Assembly (NCBI RefSeq): GCF_040938485.1
Contig: NW_027271997.1
Coordinates: 186,001-250,000, forward strand
DNA: 64,000 nt
Reading direction: 5' to 3'
From: Diadema antillarum
Taxonomy: Eukaryota
The position numbers were made by a program, and so were the translations under genes. Under the pieces are notes generated by a model that saw only the letters and a program-made list of their open reading frames with translations, was not told the DNA's origin and ran no database searches. Positions 121 through 58,300 of this stretch are shown piece by piece. Numbering within the stretch: position 1 is the stretch's first letter; each line of letters opens with the position of its first letter.

Positions 121-3100
121 CGTAATAAAAGTCAGCGCCAAGGTCTTCCAGTCTCAACGAAACCTGGCCCGGCCCGTGCGCCCCGTCTACCGCGCTGATC
201 ACTCCCCGTTCGCGGCACATGCTCACAAGCTCTCTGATTGGAAACAAGATGGCGGATGTGCAGGGAATGTGGTCGATCAGGGCGAGCCGGATTCGCGGGT
301 TTTCGTTGAGGGCTGTCACGTGACGCTCGAGTATTTCTTCCGTCGTCGTCTTGAAAGGTATGTGAATTTGTACCACGTCGATATCTTGTGGAAAATAAAA
401 TGAAACGTCACTGCATGGAGTTGTGACTACGTAATGCTCCCCGCAAAATAAGAAACTCTTGTAAAGTTGTGTGGTTTTAAGTATAAAACTTGAAATGGCG
501 CTATAAAGTCTATGGCTGGTATGCCTCCGCCATTTTGTATTTGATTCTCACATAGGTCTGTTATACAGCTTCACAGTGTGAGACGACATTATTAAAGAAA
601 AGAAATTACATTTTTTTTTGAAAGTTTGATGGCACAACATCAAAATGCGTTTAGTGTTTATACATTCCTTGAACCAGATTTCATTTGGATGGCTGAATAT
701 ATTGTTCGGAGGGCAAGTATTCGGGAATAAGGGTATTTTCACTTAGGGCCTAAGGACGGACAGGGGTAGGACGGACGAACGGACAACCCGAAAACATACT
801 AATGCCTCCTGCGACACTTCGTGCGGAGGCATTGTTACGGTATAGACGCTATGTTCTTATTATCAGTTGCCAATGCAAGTGATCAGGGAAAACTCTTTGG
901 GAAACTAAAAAAAAAAATGTGAGAAAAGTTAATGGCATTTCATATTTTGAATTCCGGTGTCTAATAAACCTGTCTGCTGTATACACTATGTATGTCTACA
1001 CGTGTATATTGTGTCCACATGGATTGTGGTGAGAGAGAGAGAGGGGGGGGGGGGATGAGTAGGGAGTTATCTGAGTGAAGTATTGCTGCATGACTTAACT
1101 TGTGTACTGAATTCCTGTAACCCAAATTTATCACAGATAAATATTCCAATTGTCACACCAACCCCCAACTAACATCGAGTACTCGTTCATTCTGCTCTAC
1201 ACATACCACCTTGTCGTTGATGTTGTTGTTCGTCTTCCTTTACATAAAAATAAAGGCCATTCGACGATTAAACTTTGACACAAAAAAAGTCACGTCCCTT
1301 TTTGTTTGCAGTTTGGTTACTTGTTTGGTTGCTTTGTGCAGAGGAATTTAAAAGCACACGAGCAATAACAAGAGACCACCACAAATATCAATTGAACTCT
1401 CAGCTAAGGGACGCTATGCTTCATGACTTTTACAGAATGTGTTCAAAAGTTCATCATAATGGTGTGGTCTTGATTTGTTCGACCGTGCTCGAGGTTTCTC
1501 GTAGCCTCGCCGTTACTCAATTATTATCCCACGGCGCAAATTCTCTGGAATCGAGTGCTCTGCATAGCCGCACTAAGAAGGTTTGTCGTCACGGCGGTGG
1601 CGATCTACAAAAGGGCTTTTGTAACTATTCGATCAAGAGAAGCCCACAACCATGGCAACTGCAAAAGAGCTCGGAGAGCATGACCCCCGCCAAAACCACA
1701 GAGAGTCACATATCGCAATATAGACCAAAATATAACACTAATGTTTGTCTTGTTTCTCAATATTACCAGTATTTCTCTTTTGTTCGCTTATGTCACTCTC
1801 TATGGCATAAAAATTCGTAATGTCAATGTTTGAACTTCAACAGAATGATGATTAATGAGAAAAAAGTCAATAATGAAGGCAAAAGGAAGATATTCAAGTA
1901 TGTGTAGAGAACACTGACTTCCGAATATCAACATAATAGAATAATGAAAAACCCTCTTTTCTTCACATATTGCATTGTACATGGCTTCTACTTCTGGATC
2001 GCCAGATCCTAAATAATAGACTGCGATCTGAATTAGTTTTAGATTTAGAATTAGATTTTAACAGACCTTATCATGGAGATGTTGTTCGTTCATTTAATTT
2101 TTTTTTGGATGATACCCCATTTTTTTTTTTGTTTCGCGCGCAAAAAAAAAAAAATCAAAAATCAAAAATCAAAAATCAAAAAGTGCAATGTACCGTCCTC
2201 TATTCCGGAAGGCGAATAATCCTAAGTGAAAATCGTGACTCCGGCTCAAGATCTGATACAACATTACTTTGTGTCTCTTGCCATAACGAATGTAGTCTGA
2301 AATATCCATCAAATTTCATTTCACAGCTTTTTAAGCGATATTGCAGAAACAGACAATTCCGGCAAATACATCCTTCCTGGCTGAGCTAGTAACAACCCAT
2401 ACCATTTTCGGACTCCATTTATTTACCAAGATTTGTTAATCTTCATATACTTTATGTTCTGCGTTATGGCTAATCGACTTAACGCAGCATTTGACTCCCT
2501 TGATGACGATGAACTCTTTGATTTGTTTAGACGCTCGCCTACAGAATCAAGAAGTCAGATCAATTCACGTTCTTCTGCACTTTATGAAAACCTCGTTGCC
2601 AATAATGTTAATTTTTTTTTCTAATGATTTGTTTAATGATTTTGACTTTGAACATGATTCCACTTTAATCTCCTCCAAATATGTTACGGTTGATCAATTT
2701 AAAGATTTTGTGAAAGATTTTTCAGAAAGTATATTTTCTATAGTACATTTGAATATTAGGAGTATGAATAAGCATTTTGATGAATTACAGGTATTGTTAG
2801 ATAATCAAAATAAACAACAAATATCTGTAATAGGTTTAACTGAAACATGGTTATCATCTGATATTAATTTACCGTATGCATTGAATGGTTATGATTTGAT
2901 TGTAAATAATAGAGTGAATAGGACCGGCGGCGGGGTTGCGATTTATTTATCCAATGACCTTGAGTTTGATACTTGTGATGATTTAAATATAATGAATGAT
3001 ATAATAGAGTCTTTGTTTGTTGAAATCTCCATCCCTCAAAGTAAAAATATAATAGTTGGCGTTGTTTATAGACCCCCAAACTCCAGTTCTAAAGATTTTT

Positions 3101-6100
3101 TAGATAGTATGACGAATTTATTAAAAAGCCCTCGTTTTGTTAATAAATGTATTTATATAATGGGTGATTTTAATATTGACTTGATTAAGAGTGATGATAA
3201 TACGTCACAAGAATTTCTTGAATTATTTTTATCATCCTCTTTTTTGCCATTAATTTCCAAACCTACACGTGTTACAAATCATTCTGCCACCCTCCTTGAT
3301 AATATTTTCACTAATTCTTTACAAGTTTTGAATTCTTCTATAATTTTATCCGATATGACCGATCACTTTCCAATTATAACATGCTGTGACCTTAAACATT
3401 CAGTTAATAAGTCTTATTTTCCTTTATTTAAACGTAGAGCCACACCAGAAAATTTAGCTAGTCTTGACGCTTGTTTAGACAGGGTTGATTGGTCAAGTGT
3501 TTGTGATACTGATGATGTTAATGTATCATTTGATAATTTTATGGAGATAATCAATAAGCATTTAGATGATTATATTCCTAAACTAAAAGATAAGTCAGTA
3601 AATTATAAAACAATACCTAAACTTCCATGGATTTCGAAATCTCTTCTCCGTTCAATTAACAGAAAAAATAGGTTGTATTATAAATTCAAAATGAAAAAAA
3701 CTGAGGAGTCAAAAAATAAATATACATCATATAAGAATATTTTGATTAAGGTCATACGATCTGAAAAGCGGAAATATTATACCATTCAGATAGAAAAATA
3801 TAAACATGACGTGAAGAATACATGGAAGATATTAAAGCAGGCCATGAATATATCAAAAAAGAAATTGAATATTACAAAAATAAGATTTGATAATAAAATT
3901 GTTGAAGATCCTGGTGATATAGGAAATATTTTTAATTCTTATTTTGCAATGATTGGAGAGAATCTGGCAAAAGAAGTACCGCAGTCCGATACGCATTTTG
4001 CAAAATTTTTAGGTCAATCCAATCCCAGTTCTATTTTCTTAGCTCCAACTACGAAATATGAAATAATAGACATTGTTGCTGCAATGAATGATAAACGAAG
4101 TGCCGGTTATGATGATATAAGTAATTTTATTATAAAGGGAATTATATTTTCTATTGCTGACCCACTTTCTCATATTTTTAATAAATCCATATTACATGGT
4201 GTTTTTCCTGATTGTATGAAAATAGCTAAGGTGTGTCCTTTATTCAAAAAAGGAGACAGTTTTGATATAAGTAATTATAGACCTATTTCTCTACTTTCAT
4301 CCATATCTAAGGTTTTGGAAAAATTGATATTTACAAGAACGATTAAATTTCTCAATTATTATAATGTTTTTACAAATTCTCAATTTGGGTTTCGTCAGAA
4401 ACACAGCACCATTCATGCTCTTTTGAAGTTTATTGATAACGCCGCACATACTATAGATGACCATTCTCATCTTGTTGGTATCTTCCTGGACTTCTCCAAG
4501 GCCTTCGATACAATTAATCACGAAATTTTACTTCATAAATTGTCTCATTATGGTATACGAGGGAAGGCCTTGGAATGGTTCAGGAGTTACCTGCAAAACC
4601 GAAAACAATATGTATTTTTGAACGAGCACAGTTCTAGTCTTGAAGTTATTAAATGTGGCGTCCCTCAGGGGAGTATATTAGGACCTTTACTTTTCATCAT
4701 TTACATAAATGATTTTTGTAGATCATCCGATATACTTTCTTTTATACTTTTTGCCGATGATTCAAACATTTTCTTCTCCCACCAAAATCCAATCACTCTT
4801 GTCGATACTGTTAATTCTGAATTTAAAAAAGTGACTCAATGGATAAGAGCCAATAAATTATCACTGAATCTTCAGAAAACTAACTACATGTTATTCAGTA
4901 AGTCTATAGAAGTTTTACGCACAGATATCATCTTTGATGACGTTCATTTAGAGCGTGTATCACATACAAAGTTTCTCGGTATTACAGTAGACGATAAACT
5001 TTCGTGGAAGCCTCATATTATTAATATTAGTAAAATAATTTCGCGTAATATTGGTATTATTAATAGACTTAAATCTCATATCCCGTCGTCTTCCTTGCTG
5101 ACGTTGTATTTTTCATTGATATTACCTTATTTAAATTATGGAATTTTAGCATGGGGCAGTGCCCATCAAACTTTATTAGATAGATTATTGTTATTACAAA
5201 AAAAAGGCACTTCGTATCATTTGTGGCGTTTTTCCATGTTCCCATGCAGATCCATTATTTGTTAGATATAAGATTTTAAAAATCAAAGATTTGTTTTTCT
5301 TTCAGCTGGGTCAGTTTATGTTTAATTATAACACAAATGCACTTCCTAGCATTTTTGATTCAATGTTTCCACGAAATCAATCTTTTCATAATTATCCCAC
5401 CAGGCGATCAAATGAGTTTCATTTACCCCTTCTGAGAACGTTATTGGCTCAAAATACATTTATATACAGTGGCCCTAGATTTTGGAATTCTTTAAGTTGT
5501 GATATAAAAAATTCTTTATCTTTGAATTCGTTTAAGCGTAAGTTAAAATTTTTTTTTTGTTGAACTCATATTAAGCTATATATGATTCATTACCTAGCTG
5601 GTCTTTACAGCCTAAGGGTTCATCGTCAATCATTGATTTCATCATTGTGTATTTTTTACATTATCTTATTTGTATAAACTTTGTTCGGCTGATCGAGCTG
5701 AAACACCTCAATTCCCTCTTCTGATCCAGATGTACAGCACCTCAATTCCATCTTCTGATCCCGATGTTCAGCGTGTTGGCTTTTCCTTTCACTTCCTTTT
5801 TCTTTCTCTCCTTTCTTTCCATTGTTCTTTTGTGTTTTATTACTGTCATGGTATACCCTACTGTAAAGTCATGTAAAGTCGTTGTGTTTCTACTGTCTTG
5901 TTCTGTCCTGTCTTGTTCTCTCCTGTCTTTGTAAAAAAAAAGTTCAATGTATTCACAAGAATCCTTTGAGTGGTTCACAATTTACAAGCATGCTTTTCAG
6001 TGAACCTCTCAGTTCTTTCTTTCTTTTTTCCCCTCCAAACATAACTTTGTATTTTGCCGACATGCATGTATAATTTCGTATTTGTTAAACATTATCTACC

Positions 6101-42424: not shown

Positions 42425-45400
42425 AATTTTTTTTAGTTCCTCACTAACCCAAGTAGAGAGCAGGGCCCTTTCTTCATTGGAATGGTCACAGGGTGTGTTT
42501 GTTTGTCATTGGCGCACGTTCGACAGAGAGGAAAGAGGAGTTTACCCTCCTCGCTTCTGTAGGGGAGGACAGGATGAAAGAGTTGGCGTGGAGGACACAC
42601 CTGACATTTTACAAGTCCGAAGTAATTGCCAATGTCGTCAAAGTTGTCCGTGATCACGGTGGGATGTCCTAGAGGAAATTCGGCATACTTGCAAACCCAA
42701 GGGTATAGACTACAAACATCGACATAGTTTATGCGTTCATCATTCTATACCCTATGGTATAATTTTAGCGCATTTTCCTCCCCCCATATAATGCTTCGCG
42801 CGGTTGGAGGGGTTCCTGGAACTGGAGAGTGTCAACAAAATTTGCCACCGCCAAATCTTCCTTCAACATTTTTCTGAATTGGCACTCCCACATGGTTACC
42901 ACCGTGTACCCTTGCTTTCGTATGACGTTCAGCCGGTATGGTGCGGTCATATACATCTTGGACCGTTTCATCGGATCCCGGCAGAACGACATCCCGTCGA
43001 GGGTAGCAGCGTGGACAACCGTGCCACAGATTCCCCCAAAGTTTGTAAATGGTATTCGTGGTCCTGTCGTAACCATCGACGCGAAACCTGTCAATACGAT
43101 GCTCTCCCCAGTTCCTAGCATGGTCAATGCGTACGTTGTTTTGGTGGCTAATCCACTCCAACCATTTCAGTGCCAGAAGAGAATGCCGATCCTTCCATCT
43201 ATACCCATGGGTAGGTATGAGACCTATGGAATTTGGTTTCAGAAATTTGGTCCTAAACACGGTGTTACGGGCCGAAGCAATGGTTATGTTTTTGAAGGGA
43301 TCAATATTGCCCGTTACTTTCATGAAAAGCGTACGAAAAGCCATGCAGCCCTCCATGAGAATGTGGACGTCGGAACGACAGTATGCCAGAATTTCTTCTT
43401 CGAAGTCAAAATGATCGTTCCTGTGTGTTGAGTACCAAGCTTCGAATTCTGAACGCTTGCTTTCAGACATCCCATCGGGATCGTAAGAGGATTTGTCCGG
43501 AAGTGCTCCTTTGTAGTCTTGGTACTCAGTTTTATTGAAAACGGAGGCATAAAAAATGGGGGAAAAACCCTTTCTTCAACTCTTTGAGAGCAAAGGTAGA
43601 GGGATAAGAAGAAAGAAGCATGGCGAGATAGCTCAGAGAATCAATGACTTTTACATCATTGATTGGAAGACTACGAATCTTACCACCATTCATGATGACT
43701 TCGGGTACAATGCCTAATTGTCTGTGACAGTATTCTTTGAGAAACTGGGTATCGTATGAGCGGGCATTGTGAGCGATGGCAGTTACTCTCTCGTGATCCT
43801 CTTCCGTGCCAAATAAACATTCGCAAAATTTGTCGAGCGTGTCGTCCCCTTTGAAAATATGTTCCCTAACAAGGCAGGTTGTGCAAACGTTGCCCCCCCC
43901 CCCCCCTTATCCGCAAAACAGTCTTGACACACTCTCAGTGCAATGCACAAATTTGGAATGTGTTTAAAAACAGGCCCGTGGTCATTTTGCCCCACTTTGT
44001 CATCCTGTCTGCATTCGAAATCAAAAACGATGAATTTTTGTTTCTTGGATTTCTGCTTTTCCTGATTCTTTTTCTTATTCTTTGTCATGGTTCAGGTTGG
44101 GATCAGGAAGAGTTCTCATAAAACACTGATGCCCTTCTTTGATCACCCGTGTTTTGCATCGCTCGCAATATCCCACCCTACAATCGTGTTTTTCGGATTT
44201 TTCTCTTCTACTGTCGATTAAAACGTTGCACTTCTTGTACCTCTGCAACAGTTGGCAGATTGATCGTTGTTTTTTCAGTTTGCAAGGGTGTCTGATGATT
44301 TTCGAAACACCCTTCGGTCTTGAAACACCTGCCACAGTCAGGGCACTGTACCCAATTCTCTAACCGACAGTTTTGTTTGCTTTTGCAGCAATTGCACGTA
44401 TCGAGGCAGACGTGCTTCGATACTTGATCGTACCCCTTGAAGCAAACCCTACAGAAAGAGCTCTTACGGAGGAAAGCGGGCATGGCGACGATGACGTCAA
44501 AATACCCGTTATGGAAGAAAAGGGTCAACAATTTGCCATACTCCGGTCCCTTGTATATGAGCCCATGCGTTCCACCATTGACATACACAGCGATTTGGTA
44601 GCCTTTGTCATGGAGATACCTCTGGAATTGTTTTATTTCGGGTAAACCACATTTTTTTTTTTGGCTTTGTCCACTCCAGCCGCTTTTTGGCGAAATGTTT
44701 GCGGGTCTTCATCTTTATTGACATAGGCCACAGCCACGGCTAAAGCCCTCCCACAACAGAGATTATCTGTCTTCGAAATTTGAACGAATCTCTTTTTCTT
44801 TGCGATGAAGCGGTCCAAGGGGATCGTGTTTTCACTGGATTTGCCTCCCTCGGGCATATGAGTGTGGACAACCTTTAGATTAAATCCCCCCAAAAGCCGA
44901 AAATCTTCGTTGGATTGCATAATTTGCTCAATGATGGACAGGATTCGTTCCACCAAGGAGCTTTAAGCTCCTTAGTTCCACCGAAAGTTGATCTTTTCTC
45001 GTCAGAGGTATGCCCGCATCCTGTTTCAAATTTGGAGATGATTTGACAAAGCCTACCTCATCACCTTTCTCAAAGTTTGCCGTAACACGCATTATGATGC
45101 TTTTAAACAATGCACTTACCACATCGTGCATAGCGTAGCGTATCAAAAGGGTCTCTAAAGGGCGTATCGCCAGTCTATAGTCCGTGATGCGCCCTCTGAA
45201 ACGCGGCGCCTCCATCTCCTCCCTCGCAAGGAGATCAAAATATTCTCCGATCTGGTCCTGTGTAAAAGTAAGGAAAAAAATGTTGTTAAACATGAAACCG
45301 ACAAGACAAGCATAGTTACAAGTTGTTTCAGACACTTTTCCATCAATATTGCCAAAATTGATATCTCATGAACTTACCATCAAACTTGTTTCACTCGGTG

Positions 45401-45943
45401 AGACGTTTTCACGCGTTGTCTGGGTAGAATTTTCACCGTCCTTCTCTCGAGGGCTGGAGAATAAATCCATCTGGGTATCAATTTCGCCCTCTTGAGAAAC
45501 CGGATGCATTTCACTGTCGGGTTGTGAGAAGGACCGCGAACTTTCAGGAGGGTTCGAAGCTTCCTCACTGTCCAAGTCGGATGAATCTTCATCCTCGTTC
45601 CTCTGTTTTAATTCAAAGCATACACACAGACACAGAAAATAAAGATTACTTGCAACTATTATTCATATCGATATGATATCTAAACTTGATAATATATGAC
45701 CATATCGTGACATTGCATGTCGATTCGACGTTCAATAAAATGTAAATAAAACGTCTTTTCATATTCCGTACTTACCCCCACATTGTCACCATGCCCGGCT
45801 TGGGGAATATCGGGATCGGAGGAGTTCCCTTCCTCTACACTCTCCCACTCATCCCAGTTGAGGGATCTCCTGCGCTGATCTACCGCTTGTTGCCTCTGTT
45901 CTCTCCTCCTTTGCGCATGACACCTCCGTCTAGCGCTCGCCAT
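42425..45943 (-). pseudogene. Protein-primed DNA polymerase B (pPolB) pseudogene, spliced, C-terminally truncated
   Basis: Exons 45943-45776, 45602-45378 and 45257 to about 42425. Frameshifted motifs: DNLCCGRALAVA, Cys-rich Zn-binding region, ExoI FDFE, IAHNARSYD, KGFFPH, ExoIII YCRSDV, TIASA, Vsr-like VDGY..WHGC, PREALYGGR, motif A YVDVCSLYP, HPVLP, LLFPLCRTC. Motifs B (KxxxNSxYG) and C (YxDTD) are missing. Confidence 0.9.
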
Positions 45944-46512
45944 ATATGTAGTGTAGAGGGCCTGATGTTCGCGCTCGCGCCGTCTTGGCTAGTCCATTCA
46001 TATCCTATATGAAGCGAATAAATATGTATTGTGAGCAGACACTTACCACCACGTTGTCACCTTGGCCAGCTTGGGGAATATCGGGATCGGAGTCTTCACT
46101 CTCCAACTCGTCCCAGTTAAGGAGTCTCCTGCGCTGCTCCACCACTTGCTGCCTCTGTTCTCTCCTCCTTTGCGCATGACACCTCCGTCTAGCGCTCGCC
46201 GTATATGTAGTGTAGAGGGCCTGATGTTCGCGCTCGTCTTGGCTAGTCCATTCATATCCTATATGAAGCGAATAAATATGTATTGTGAGCAGACATTTAC
46301 CACCACGTTGTCACCTTGGCCAGCTTGGGGAATATCGGGATCGGAGTCTTCACTCTCCAACTCGTCCCAGTTGAGGAGTCTCCTGCGCTGCTCCACCACT
46401 TGCTGCCTCTGTTCTCTCCTCCTTTGCGCATGACACCTCCGTCTAGCGCTCGCCATATATGTAGTGTAGAGGGCCTGATGTTCGCGCTCGCGCCGTCTTG
46501 GCTAGTCCATTC
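45776..46512 (-). repeat. Three tandem copies (about 254-259 bp period) of pPolB leader + exon 1 + splice donor
   Basis: Exon copies at 45776-45943 (ATG), 46047-46202 (ATG mutated to ACG) and 46301-46456 (ATG), each followed by GTAAGT, GTAAGT or GTAAAT. Confidence 0.92.
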
Positions 46513-47422
46513 AGGAGTCATGTTTCCGGACATACTAGTCACGACAAGACAAACGGAGAAAAATCTGCTTACAATTTTTGTCACAATTATAGAAATCAAT
46601 GGCTATTGGCATTCACGGTCATGCGCTAAGATGCCGAGAACAAGATTATGAATGTCTTTGCGACCATAATAATATGTTTTTCATGCTTACAGCAGTACAC
46701 GTATACAAACGGTTGAACGTAGAAATATTCGCCTAAAAATTTAAGACACGTTATGTTACCAATATACTCCCTATACCTCAATCACAACATGCATACGCCT
46801 TAAGTGTACATGCTTGGCTTTATCTATTTTAACTTTCAATCTCGTTTAAGATGTTAATACGGGCAACACGTTCTCGTCTCACCTGTTCAACGATGAAATC
46901 CAGCGAATAATATGTAAAACTGCTACGCTTTTCTTAGTGCCAACGTCCACTGCAAGTCAGAACTTGTCCCGATGATGTCTGTTCTTCCAGAGTTGCTACG
47001 TCGTCAGGCTGCGGAGCTCGAATGATGAGGCCGTTGTCAAGACGGCGATATTTATACAAGTTTTTTGTTTCTTGTTTATGTGCCCAAGACTCCTTTATAG
47101 TTACAACAAATACCACTGGATGACGGTTGCTACGAATAATGATTATCATTCAAAAATGAAAATCATTCAAATGCGCGCCATTTTCCTCCTTCGTTCCTTT
47201 AAAAAAAACCAGCCAATTTTCGAACATTCTACCATTTTTCCCACCAATTATCAGCCACTATGTTATTTGTTTACCCGTTGCTTAGTTACCAGAGACGTAC
47301 ATGACCCTTCTGCGTGACCTCCTATGCAAATTAACCCATTGTTATGCTAATAACGTTACATCATCGCACCCATTGTTCGTGCTCACTCAAGCATTTGGGT
47401 CTGAGTGGACTTCCTTATTCTC

Positions 47423-47745
47423 TTACCATATCGGTATTAGGTACTCCACGTACTTGTGTCGGCGAAATTTTTCGAATCCCGGTATCCCAACACCGGTAGA
47501 TAAAGCGAGATACCCGTCCGGTATTTCGTCTAATTCGTCATCGACACTTTTTGGTATTGGTGGCACTGAGTAGGGTGGTTGGTAGACTGGTTTTTTATCT
47601 CCCACAGATCCCTGCTCGGGTTTATAGGTGATGAGTGCTCGGGTTTTATAGGTGTTGACTGCTCGAGTTTAGGTGATGACGGTTTTGGTGTCGATTTAGA
47701 GGGTGCAGATGCTCCCTTGCTCGTGGATGCACTACAGTCTTCCAT
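47423..47745 (-). pseudogene. Frameshifted Pro/Ser-rich accessory ORF of the Polinton-like element, unknown function
   Basis: ORFs 47530-47745 and 47423-47605 overlap and join into MEDCSAS...SRDL/WGDKKPVYQPPYSVPP...FRRHKYVEYLIPIW. A TATATAA lies about 55 nt upstream. Confidence 0.5.
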
Positions 47746-48099
47746 GATTTACCTGGTTTGCTATCAAGATGGTTTGTGCTCCTCTCGGCGGTTATCCTTA
47801 ATTATATAGCCAGTGACACCCTTTGTTTTGCACTCCAGGGGAGAAACCGAGTATTGGAAAATTTTGTAGTTTTCCTGCCAATAATCAATTAACCTTATGG
47901 AAGGCTGAATGGCGTAGGTGACAGCGGTTGTACGCCGCTCTGATCTGTCCCGAGATCATGAACATTCTGATCGCAAAAGATGAACTGATGAATTAAAATC
48001 GAGGAGATGTCTGGTAATGTATAGCCAGAGCTCTTAGAGCAGATACGCGACTCGGCATGGTGTGTGGCATGTATCATAAGTATATATAACTGACCTTAC

Positions 48100-55331: not shown

Positions 55332-58300
55332 CTAGTTCTGGAACATGTTGTTGGTGAATTTGACGTAGTCCAACGCCCCTGGGACCTCTCTCCCCTTGCT
55401 GTCCTTGTATGGTTCCATTCGTAAGATGCAGTACTCTGCCAAGTCGGTTTGAAGATTCTGTGATATACAAAGAAACCACGAAAACAATGCCATATAACCA
55501 GTCTTCACTGAATTGGTCGGAACACTGCGAACGCAAGCAAGCAATTATCAGAAATGGAAACTTGACATCAGTCATTTTGATCTCAAAGACATGTGACCAA
55601 TACAAGCCTACAATGGTTGTAAAAGTTTTTTCTTGCAAAAGTGTAATTTGCAGGAAGACGACAACACTTTCAACTCATGACAATCATCACTAACATATAA
55701 TTTTATATCTGTAATTTATCATAAGTATTGATATCAACAGTAACAAACACAAATGTGACAGTCTACATGAGTAACAGAAGAAATTATGATACTGACTATT
55801 CTTTCCTTACTATGAGTTCACCTGGGGTTGACAAATACAGCTGTGACCAACATCTCTGTTCAGTGATAACATTTGTGACTGTGATATTCTACGACTTTTC
55901 TCGCCTGTCTATGGGGGATCCTTCATAAACCGTGACTTTCGTGTGATTTTACTCTAACTAGTATTTGTTGATTTTAAGTTTGACTATGAGGTAGGGTTTC
56001 TGCTTTAAGGTCAACTGAAAAAAAATGGTCTGTGCAAATAACAAATCTTAAATCTGGATGAAGGGGGATATATATTGTATATACATATTCCAAGTTAGTT
56101 AATTGCCCCTAAAGTTGTGACATTATCAACTTGTTCTACGAAAACAGGTGAACATATACACAAACGAGATGAATTTATGCAACGTAAAGAAATACAACAA
56201 TGAATTATAGTGCAGACAAATGAAGCTAAATAGAGGTGATTTGACAAACGGACATGGTCCAGTAAGCATCTTAATTGGAGAAATAAACAGAACACACTCT
56301 TAATTCAAATTCGTGAAATTCTTCCATCGCAAGATTGTTTTTATGCAACTGATTGACAAATTGCCCTACATTGACATAAATAAGCACTGAATTGATCAGT
56401 GTTTTAGTAGTAGCCATGATAAAAGAAATCATGGGCATACGTACTGACATCGACGTACTGACATCGACATACTTCACATTGATGTAGGGCAATTTGTCAA
56501 TTAGTAGCATAAAAAACAACACTTCTTAATGTTCAGGAGAGCGATAAAATGTGGCAGCAACAACACTGTAACAAATGAGGTTGCCTTTCCTTTGACATGC
56601 CTTGGTGGCTACATGTTTGCGGGGGCGGATCCAGGAATTCCGTAAAGAGGGGGCGTGCTTACAAAATTAAAGGGGGGGGGCACATGCACCCCTCCTCCCT
56701 TTTTTTTCTTTTTATTTCTTTTGTTTCAACAAAAAATAATGGGGGGGGGGGCGTGCGCCGGTTGCAGTCCTCCCTGGATCCGCCACTGGTTTGTGGTAAG
56801 ACAGCTGGGGCTTGAATCACCTGATTATCTCATAATTAATTCCCCCCAAGAGTGATTTTCATCAAAATTTGAGACATAAGATTCTGTCACCCAGTGATGA
56901 TACGGAGTGTTACATGATGAAAAAGTTGAGTTAGCCCTCTACTTGCCACATTAATAATTCCCTTTTATTACACCCATTGATAATATGTATGAAACATGTG
57001 CACATTCACAGGGGCAGATCCAGGGAGGACCGCAACCGGCGCACGCCCCCCCCCCCTTTATTTTTTGTTGAAACAAAAGAAATAAAAAGAAAAAAATGGG
57101 GGAGGGGTGCGTGCGCCCCCCCCCTTTAATTTTGCAAACGCGCTTCCTCTTTACGGAATTCCTGGATTCGCCCCTGCATTCACAACTCATTGGCAAACAA
57201 AGGGTTGACAGACTCACAGCATAGAGCTCTTGCTTGGTAACATAGGGCTTGCCCTCGGCACTGAGAGCCCTGAAAGCATTCTCAATCTCATCCTTGGATT
57301 GGACATTCTCCGTCTCTCGGCTGATCATGAATGACATGTACTCCTGGAGACTCACAAAGCCATCCCTGAAAGAGGACAAGACAGATTCATTCCTTGAAAA
57401 TTTAAAGTTTCATGGAAAAAAAAATGGAATAAGAAAGCTCTCTTCATATGGCTATAATACATGGCAGTATACTTACGGTACTATACACCTGTTATAATCA
57501 ACATCTGAGACAAAATCAATAAAATCTGAACCACTACATACATGCATTTCTTGGCAAAGAAATAGCTAATATTGTGTGGTTAGGTCACACACACACATGG
57601 CTCATATCCTAGATATAGCTTGGCTTGCTTTTCATTTTGATATGAAACACAATGTGATTAGAATACGGGTTTGGGACTATTAACTCCGTTGAGGACGGGG
57701 TGATTTTGCTACAACATGCATTACCCATAGACATCTGCTGGAGTATACTTGGGACTTAAATCCTCAACAGGTTAATCATCATTTCTACTGAGGAGAAAAG
57801 AAAGGTACTCATCAATCATCCACTTTCACACAATACTGGACTATAACACCACAGGTCTAAGGATATACTGCTATTAGGGACATTTTGATTTGATGTCCTA
57901 GATGTGGACATCAAGGTAATGACGTCATTTAAAGGAACGGCCCATGCTCCAGATCCTCTAGCACGTCCAATGCCAGAATCGAGAACGCTTCTTCTTAAGA
58001 TTTCACGTCCTCCTAGATTCAGGACGTGAGTGATGTCATTGCTTGGCGCACCAATTACCAGCCCACGGGAGGGGACGAGGCCATGACATCATAACAAGTA
58101 TGTTGTGAATGATGTGCACTGAAAATCGAAATGGGCGATAATACTGCAGACGTAACGAGTGGACTGCAGCATTTAGGAACCGCTCTTGTACAAGAAAGGC
58201 ATCATCGTCCACACAATCGAAAAGTCCATATTGATGCAAATGAGACATAAATAGTTAGAGAGGGCACCCCCACCTGTTGGGATCGACGATGTCGAGGATG

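Follow-up and report, generated by a model that had tools for sequence, protein, structure and literature searches.

The polymerase gene (pPolB) of a Polinton/Maverick family in Diadema antillarum is, with a probability of about 0.9, a spliced gene with two GT-AG introns at its 5′ end. Removal of intron 2 was seen in a sequencing contig, removal of intron 1 is likely, and splicing would add a predicted leader to the protein. The window (the whole 64,000-nucleotide stretch that was analysed) contains the broken left 5 kb of one such element, and this dead copy preserves the architecture of a real spliced gene in an element of a known kind. The core claim of a sequence-only reading of this DNA, a Polinton pPolB gene with two spliceosomal introns in its 5′ end, is upheld by the intron 2 joint, by splice sites conserved among copies and by RefSeq gene models.

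The split gene and its element

The features of the window copy, from the element's left end inward, are:

47198 to 47423, minus strand: left terminal inverted repeat (TIR) region; begins AGAGAATAAGG at 47423; 90% match over 226 bp
47022 to 47056, minus strand: candidate promoter, motif-based; TATA box at 47056–47049, initiator-like site near 47030
46535 to 46882, minus strand: candidate third intron, in the 5′ UTR; donor CAG/GTGAGA at 46882, acceptor at 46565 or 46535
46301 to 46521, minus strand: exon-1 unit 1; conserved start ATG (MTPEW, 46521), frame broken, degenerate donor GTAAAT at 46300
46047 to 46254, minus strand: exon-1 unit 2; B-type, 97% identical to exon 1 of the C963 sister copy, donor GTAAGT at 46046
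45776 to 45943, minus strand: exon-1 unit 3, exon 1 of the sequence-only reading; 168 nt, 56 codons, GC 0.58
45603 to 45775, minus strand: intron 1; GT-AG, phase 0, 173 nt, GTAAGT...AAACAG, GC 0.29
45378 to 45602, minus strand: exon 2; 225 nt, 75 codons, GC 0.49, acidic and Ser-rich, predicted to be disordered
45258 to 45377, minus strand: intron 2; GT-AG, phase 0, 120 nt, GTAAGT...TACACAG, GC 0.32
42428 to 45257, minus strand: exon 3; D1/TP-like, vOTU-like, Cys-rich and pPolB (PF03175) regions, frameshifted and 3′-truncated

Both phase-0 GT-AG junctions (45775–45603 and 45377–45258) lie on the minus strand exactly where they had been placed, and the Arg-rich 56-residue and acidic, Ser-rich 75-residue exons are in frame as claimed: the exons of 168 and 225 nt are open with lengths divisible by 3, and introns 1 and 2 carry four in-frame stops and one, respectively. 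Both introns are AT-rich next to exons whose GC ranges from 0.47 to 0.58. Unit 3 of exon 1 is the 3′ portion of a conserved exon, encoding a predicted Arg-rich helix followed by an acidic stretch, and the acceptor of intron 2 coincides with the first residue of the folded terminal-protein-like domain. GTAAGT occurs 34 times in the whole window (both strands) and twice in these 686 nt, where 0.18 are expected; because a third GTAAGT (45119) falls within exon 3 coding sequence, the motif by itself is not decisive. As a constitutive donor, the site at 45119 was rejected, since the X1 contig described below reads through it. Intron 2 shows all four marks of a U2-type intron (GT-AG ends, donor consensus, pyrimidine tract and precise removal), and intron 1 is supported by motifs and conservation. 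A pattern search found branch-point-like motifs in intron 2 and none in intron 1. The pPolB frame had been described as having no convincing start of its own. Most copies lack a usable start before the TP domain in exon 3; the window's exon-3 frame does have two in-frame ATGs, one within intron 2 and one at codon 15, the latter not conserved in eight aligned B-type copies.

The family is Polinton/Maverick. In the C963 sister copy the termini lie 15.8 kb apart, with the same terminus as the window's at both ends and a 6-bp target-site duplication, TAAGGG, flanking them; the window holds the left terminus only. PF03175 matched the window pieces with E values of 2.9e-09 and 9e-08 and the C963 frame with 7.4e-43. 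The sister copy also encodes an rve integrase (E 1.8e-14) with a chromodomain, both absent from the window fragment, and a putative A32-like ATPase in a partial frame (Pox_A32, E 1.5e-04, just under the curated cut-off). Its capsid-like and protease-like frames had no Pfam match; Atlas feature matches, which involve no alignment, scored 0.98 to major-capsid clusters (PF21738 on 16% of members) and 0.98 to PF00770 clusters (32%), respectively. C963 has breaks of its own. A viral_contigs search with the ORF-called protein P0004 returned no relative, and PHROGs matched 0 of 10. Polinton core genes are listed in the accessible part of PMC5718144; the trait of intronless core genes, which is descriptive and not diagnostic, does not hold for this family.

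The window copy is a fossil, unable to encode a polymerase. Its polymerase consists of at least six frame-shifted pieces, spanning residues 1–950 of the sister copy's 1,183-residue exon-3 frame, and breaks off at ~42428 with the C-terminal part absent; in the exon-1 unit at 45943–45776 the conserved start is out of frame or missing. Exon 1 is present as three tandem units of 254 to 259 bp (45722–46488). Units 1 and 2 are 99% identical, unit 3 is A type, and the start of a B-type intron directly follows unit 2; the C25 copy, 98% identical to the window copy, has a single exon 1. Judged from these sequences, the triplication likely arose by recombination between the A and B subfamilies. The TATA motif recurs in six of the ten other-copy loci scanned and the donor of the candidate 5′ UTR intron in nine of ten; no joint for this intron was seen in the contigs compared with the window or a B-type copy. 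At one Lytechinus locus, two gene models diverge upstream of the Gln that precedes the start Met, as expected from an acceptor there. Degraded coding sequence just outside the left TIR (47426–47900) is similar to part of locus L071 (C466) and may belong to an older related element beside or around the window element.

Splice sites in sister copies and sequencing runs

The genome search matched 14 contigs, 11 of which make up the copy table; the three left out were C1295, which has a ~2-kb insertion in its exon 2 and lacks donor 2, C466, where nothing but an exon-3 piece follows a TIR, and C1176. Sites were counted by patterns anchored on motifs, with positions checked separately, and because the copies are related the counts are not independent events. 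Donor 1 (GTAAGT) and acceptor 1 (YAG) are present in 11 of 11 copies, donor 1 always at the same codon boundary; acceptor 2 (AG) is likewise found in all 11, and donor 2 (GT) in nine. Both copies without the donor 2 GT also have stops in exon 2. Both GT-AG pairs are conserved across the 11 copies, save donor 2 in two. Intron 1 measures 78 to 174 nt with two to four in-frame stops in every copy, and intron 2 measures 104 to 200 nt; the lengths of both introns cover all three classes modulo 3, and exon 2 is divisible by 3 in 10 of 11.

Between the window and C963, DNA identity is 82% in exon 1, 38% in intron 1, 47% in exon 2, 51% in intron 2 and 82% in exon 3. The A and B types are therefore only 38–51% identical from donor 1 to codon 11 of exon 3, with 82% on both flanks. 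The A- and B-type exon-2 peptides align (score 87 versus 40.9 ± 6.6 for shuffled sequences, 0 of 1,000 reaching it), and the A and B forms of each intron share place and phase with no detectable shared sequence. The DNA divergence and the peptide alignment together indicate that the block exists in two old versions, unrelated in appearance, that have retained one exon-intron layout. Window-type exon 2, which begins with AGG, occurs in only two places in the genome; B-type exon 2 begins with ATG. At locus L021 (779–1006 and 1114–1377), the B-type exons 1 and 2 open with MTPEW and MTPWE, respectively, a likeness that may reflect chance or an old duplication and that gives a possible second start.

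Public run X1, whose RNA status is only a guess, contains one 543-nt contig (depth 21.6) that skips 120 nt, 45258–45377 (joint given as 45256/45377), with a short side of 227 nt. The gap ends are CT..AC, which corresponds to GT..AG on the minus strand. The contig is ~94–96% identical to the window (33 differing letters in 543) and therefore stems from a related copy. Even were X1 DNA, precise loss at GT-AG would still mark the intron ends. Run X2 carries intron 2 unspliced (45166–45378, 0 differences from the window). For intron 1, no joint was found in the runs compared with the window copy or with the B-type copy, so that spliced sequence is on record for intron 2, in the one X1 contig, and not for intron 1. 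The B-type copy gave no joint at either intron in these runs, with X2 carrying the B-type donor-2 region unspliced. X1 gave no cover over most of exon 1 nor upstream of it, and the start of its spliced contig, 45603, falls on the 5′ edge of exon 2; since contigs cannot show ends and these come from one study, neither observation counts as evidence here. The run search returned two runs with 0.21 of the query words, and no known RNA run was among the matches listed.

The leader, gene models and other polymerase lineages

Two RefSeq models labelled Diadema antillarum, XP_071503405.1 and XP_071492307.1, correspond to sister copies and use both junctions. These models are predictions whose RNA support is not visible, and they also use the in-exon donor at 45119 that X1 reads through. 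B-type exon 1 has a 100% match in a protein labelled Diadema antillarum. The Lytechinus models XP_063965780.1 and XP_041483336.1 have a homologous leader, and all four are named "uncharacterized protein" and are not recognised as Polinton genes. The sequence-only reading had suggested that ORF-based annotation misses this part of the gene, which is true of plain ORF callers and not of the RefSeq spliced models, which contain the leader under that name. Four ORF-called proteins (P0004, P0036, P0068 and P0070) start inside intron-like sequence that ends in Gln (CAG) at the acceptor-2 position.

The leader, which comprises ~160 residues in front of D1, is conserved over its first 45 residues. MASARRR, previously taken as its start, was rejected: the sister copies start MTPEWTSQDE 21 codons ahead of it, and sea-urchin relatives and sister copies alike have the N-terminus M-x(2-3)-W-[ST]-x-Q-D-E. 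The exon-1 peptide aligned with Lytechinus pPolB N-termini with a score of 80 versus 31.6 ± 5.5 (0 of 1,000 shuffles), with z values of 11.9 for P0019 and 9.9 for P0032, both from Lytechinus and two of the 150 representatives among the matches listed. It also aligned locally with the intronless C693 frame (59 versus 33 ± 5.4, 0 of 1,000 shuffles), a likeness found only by the shuffle-tested alignment; BLASTP of exon 1 with the C693 N-terminus gave no match (E 3.6). Exon 2 had no significant alignment with the Lytechinus leader (85 and 239 of 1,000 shuffles), and comparison of related N-termini thus bears out exon 1, in Lytechinus and C693, and not exon 2 in Lytechinus. Since the first Met of C963 exon 3 is residue 125, behind D1, TP requires an upstream exon.

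An AlphaFold model of P0009 (52 sequences, mean pLDDT 68.7, pTM 0.35) shows a helix at residues 7–46, pLDDT below 50 at residues 45–149 and a folded domain from ~151, the acceptor-2 position. This domain has a four-to-five-strand sheet and two helices, matched by eye only to the published D1/TP topology; Q255 is invariant and S256 almost so, both lying between helix 2 and the last strand, and C308 is almost invariant too. On this model, splicing likely adds an Arg-rich helix and a disordered acidic linker just before the terminal-protein domain. P0005 had no match among solved structures (best E 0.26); fold matches of the polymerase were to adintovirus, bidnavirus-like and adenovirus polymerases, all with low TM-scores.

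A D1 search of the genome gave 150 scored matches among 169 candidates; six weak, degraded loci (L072–L077) were left out of the analysis. Candidate 5′ introns were found in 7 of 11 sampled pPolB lineages and a continuous frame in 4 of 11. Outside the window clade these introns are sequence-based candidates without read support:

Window clade: two introns, phase 0
C743: one candidate intron at the acceptor-2 place, phase 0
C850: two candidate introns, phase 1
C14, C41 and C61/C34: one candidate intron each, phase 1
C32: one candidate intron, phase 1, by frame offset only
C693, C481/C666, C9 and C1398: continuous Met-started frame

The intron finder missed the C32/C948 lineage and C743b. A 29-nt GT-AG segment in the C9 lineage was rejected as an intron, the C9 frame being continuous. 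Relatives with a continuous N-terminal ORF, which would speak against the introns, thus exist in four lineages, but these are distant from the window clade (≤38% identity). In a tree of ~300 residues and 17 rows, the phase-0 forms group with P0004 and the Lytechinus protein (95/93 including C743), the phase-1 forms fall in another clade (99/99) and the intronless C693 lies beside the phase-0 clade (92/90). Because the tree is midpoint-rooted, it does not fix the order of intron gains and losses.

Several lineages showed further features. At L038 (C850, 380–1135), exon 2 and the start of exon 3 share the opening peptide GIPDEHLLE after similar donors, a repetition that suggests tandem duplication of an exon-intron unit as the origin of the second C850 intron. 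The lineage with the most members (L064, C34, 2122–2262; L062) has a candidate intron that is in frame and stop-free or out of frame depending on poly-T length, and ORF callers consequently give 1,472 or ~1,417 residues for the C34-lineage gene. At L058 (C743, 5570–6200) pPolB is directed away from the integrase block, unlike in C963, with the intron kept at the acceptor-2 place; this is a gene-order rearrangement within the clade.

Known systems and rival readings

Polinton/Maverick elements (eupolintoviruses, proposed adintoviruses) with a TP–vOTU–pPolB polyprotein are described in the accessible part of 10.1101/2024.03.18.585575. As far as that text goes, the Diadema family is like them in its TIRs, 6-bp target-site duplication and pPolB with putative D1/TP-like and vOTU-like N-terminal domains and, in the 15.8-kb sister copy, in an rve integrase with a chromodomain, capsid-like and C5-protease-like genes and a putative A32-like ATPase. 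It is unlike them in that its polymerase gene is split by two spliceosomal introns, with a ~160-residue leader before D1. In the portions available, PMC8097293 describes intact vertebrate Mavericks without introns, citing Kapitonov and Jurka 2006 as agreeing, and 10.1101/2022.07.12.499685 describes nematode core Maverick genes as intronless, with introns in cargo genes. Word searches of the accessible text of 10.1101/2023.08.22.554363, PMC8502044, 10.1101/2024.03.25.586562 and 10.1101/2024.03.18.585575 found no spliced Polinton polymerase. Our literature search, which did not extend to key older papers and Repbase, where PolB exons may be mentioned, found no paper that reports splicing of a core Polinton polymerase gene in animals.

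The likening of this gene to adenoviruses is a loose fit. In adenovirus E2B, according to the part of PMC11304566 available, the pTP and Ad-pol mRNAs are spliced from shared 5′ exons to separate terminal exons. On that description, protein-primed replication genes in both systems need host splicing to complete their coding 5′ end, but here two short cis introns lie within one fused-polyprotein gene with a long leader. No shared leader or alternative terminal exon of the E2B kind was found in the Diadema Polinton and, short of a direct comparison, nothing pointed to homology between its leader and adenoviral ones; in the sister copies the TP-like domain and the polymerase share one exon and one frame, and the E2B shared-exon plan is absent. 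Introner insertions in dinoflagellate Polinton-like elements, reported in the accessible text of PMC12166617, likewise place spliceosomal introns inside such elements. As presented there, those are recent insertions of intron-making transposons, whereas the introns here keep their place and phase and flank a coding exon under protein-level constraint.

In the mechanism that we favour, host RNA polymerase II would transcribe the gene from the TATA promoter (~47050) just inside the left TIR. The host spliceosome would then join exon 1 (start MTPEW), exon 2 and the long exon 3, the intron 1 step being presumed, to give a leader–TP–vOTU–pPolB polyprotein of probably ~1,400 residues, to judge from P0005 (1,436 aa) and P0012 (1,427 aa). 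Cleavage by the vOTU would leave the leader on the TP half, where its modelled Arg-rich helix would likely act as a nuclear-import or partner-binding arm. Because most copies have no usable exon-3 start before the TP domain, production of the primer protein would depend on splicing.

An alternative is that the junctions are motifs that arose by chance, or were inserted late while the copy decayed, and that intact relatives have a continuous ORF. The window copy is indeed heavily broken, four of 11 lineages have a continuous Met-started frame and GTAAGT also occurs within exon 3; set against this are the precise GT-AG removal in the contig, the same sites in copies with long open exon-3 frames and the distance of the continuous lineages, so that this account is very improbable and already largely refuted by the X1 contig and the copy comparison. 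It is somewhat less improbable, though still quite doubtful, that only intron 2 is real, exon 1 being a separate small upstream ORF and the polymerase starting in exon 2 (at the B-type ATG) or from a UTR-leader 5′ end. The contigs without an intron 1 joint, the ATG that opens B-type exon 2 and the Lytechinus pictus isoform models P0010 and P0011, which begin within the leader, would all suit such a gene. A window-type exon 2 that opens with AGG would not, nor would a donor 1 on the same codon boundary in 11 of 11 copies or an exon-1 peptide with which single-chain relatives, the intronless C693 frame among them, begin.

Both forms could also be made, retention of intron 2 serving to switch polymerase output through a stop in A-type copies and through an in-frame insert of 41 to 43 residues in some B-type copies. 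This is compatible with the spliced gene that we favour, and we consider it unlikely. Two of the 11 copies, C963 and C574, have a continuous frame when unspliced, because their intron 2 keeps the frame, has no stop and follows an exon 2 that starts with ATG. The one intron of the C34/C200 lineage also preserves the frame and lacks stops in both C34 and C200. Seven of the 11 copies have an intron 2 whose length, which varies in a poly-T run, is not divisible by 3, and this argues against selection for read-through.

Returning to the two-intron gene, a broader reading is that spliced 5′ leaders are normal and repeatedly gained in invertebrate Polinton polymerase genes, that "intronless" reflects a vertebrate and nematode bias, that many Polintons are annotated without their N-terminus, and that splicing controls the making of TP and hence replication. 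We advance this tentatively, at slightly less than even odds, because two clades of one genome differ in exon-1 peptides and intron phases. Surveys count Mavericks as intact only with intronless core ORFs and read gaps as decay; spliced families would therefore be undercounted and their polymerases annotated without the first 100–160 residues. Because the replication-priming protein that carries the leader is predicted to remain at the ends of the genome, the leader may have a part in nuclear entry or host contact. A need for the spliceosome would tie element expression to the nucleus, and junction reads would provide an RNA marker that separates expressed copies from the DNA background.

One RefSeq model, P0002 (XP_071492422.1), joins Polinton leader exons to an adhesion-GPCR-like host gene (PF00002, PF01825); it is probably mis-joined and possibly a chimeric transcript. 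Elsewhere in the window, an open 941-codon frame at 2440–5265 (plus strand) with endonuclease (PF03372) and reverse transcriptase (PF00078) domains is a LINE-type retrotransposon, and a frame at 56951–57409 (minus strand) with a calcium-insensitive EF hand (PF08726, E 2.5e-09) is probably an exon of a host spectrin/alpha-actinin-type gene.
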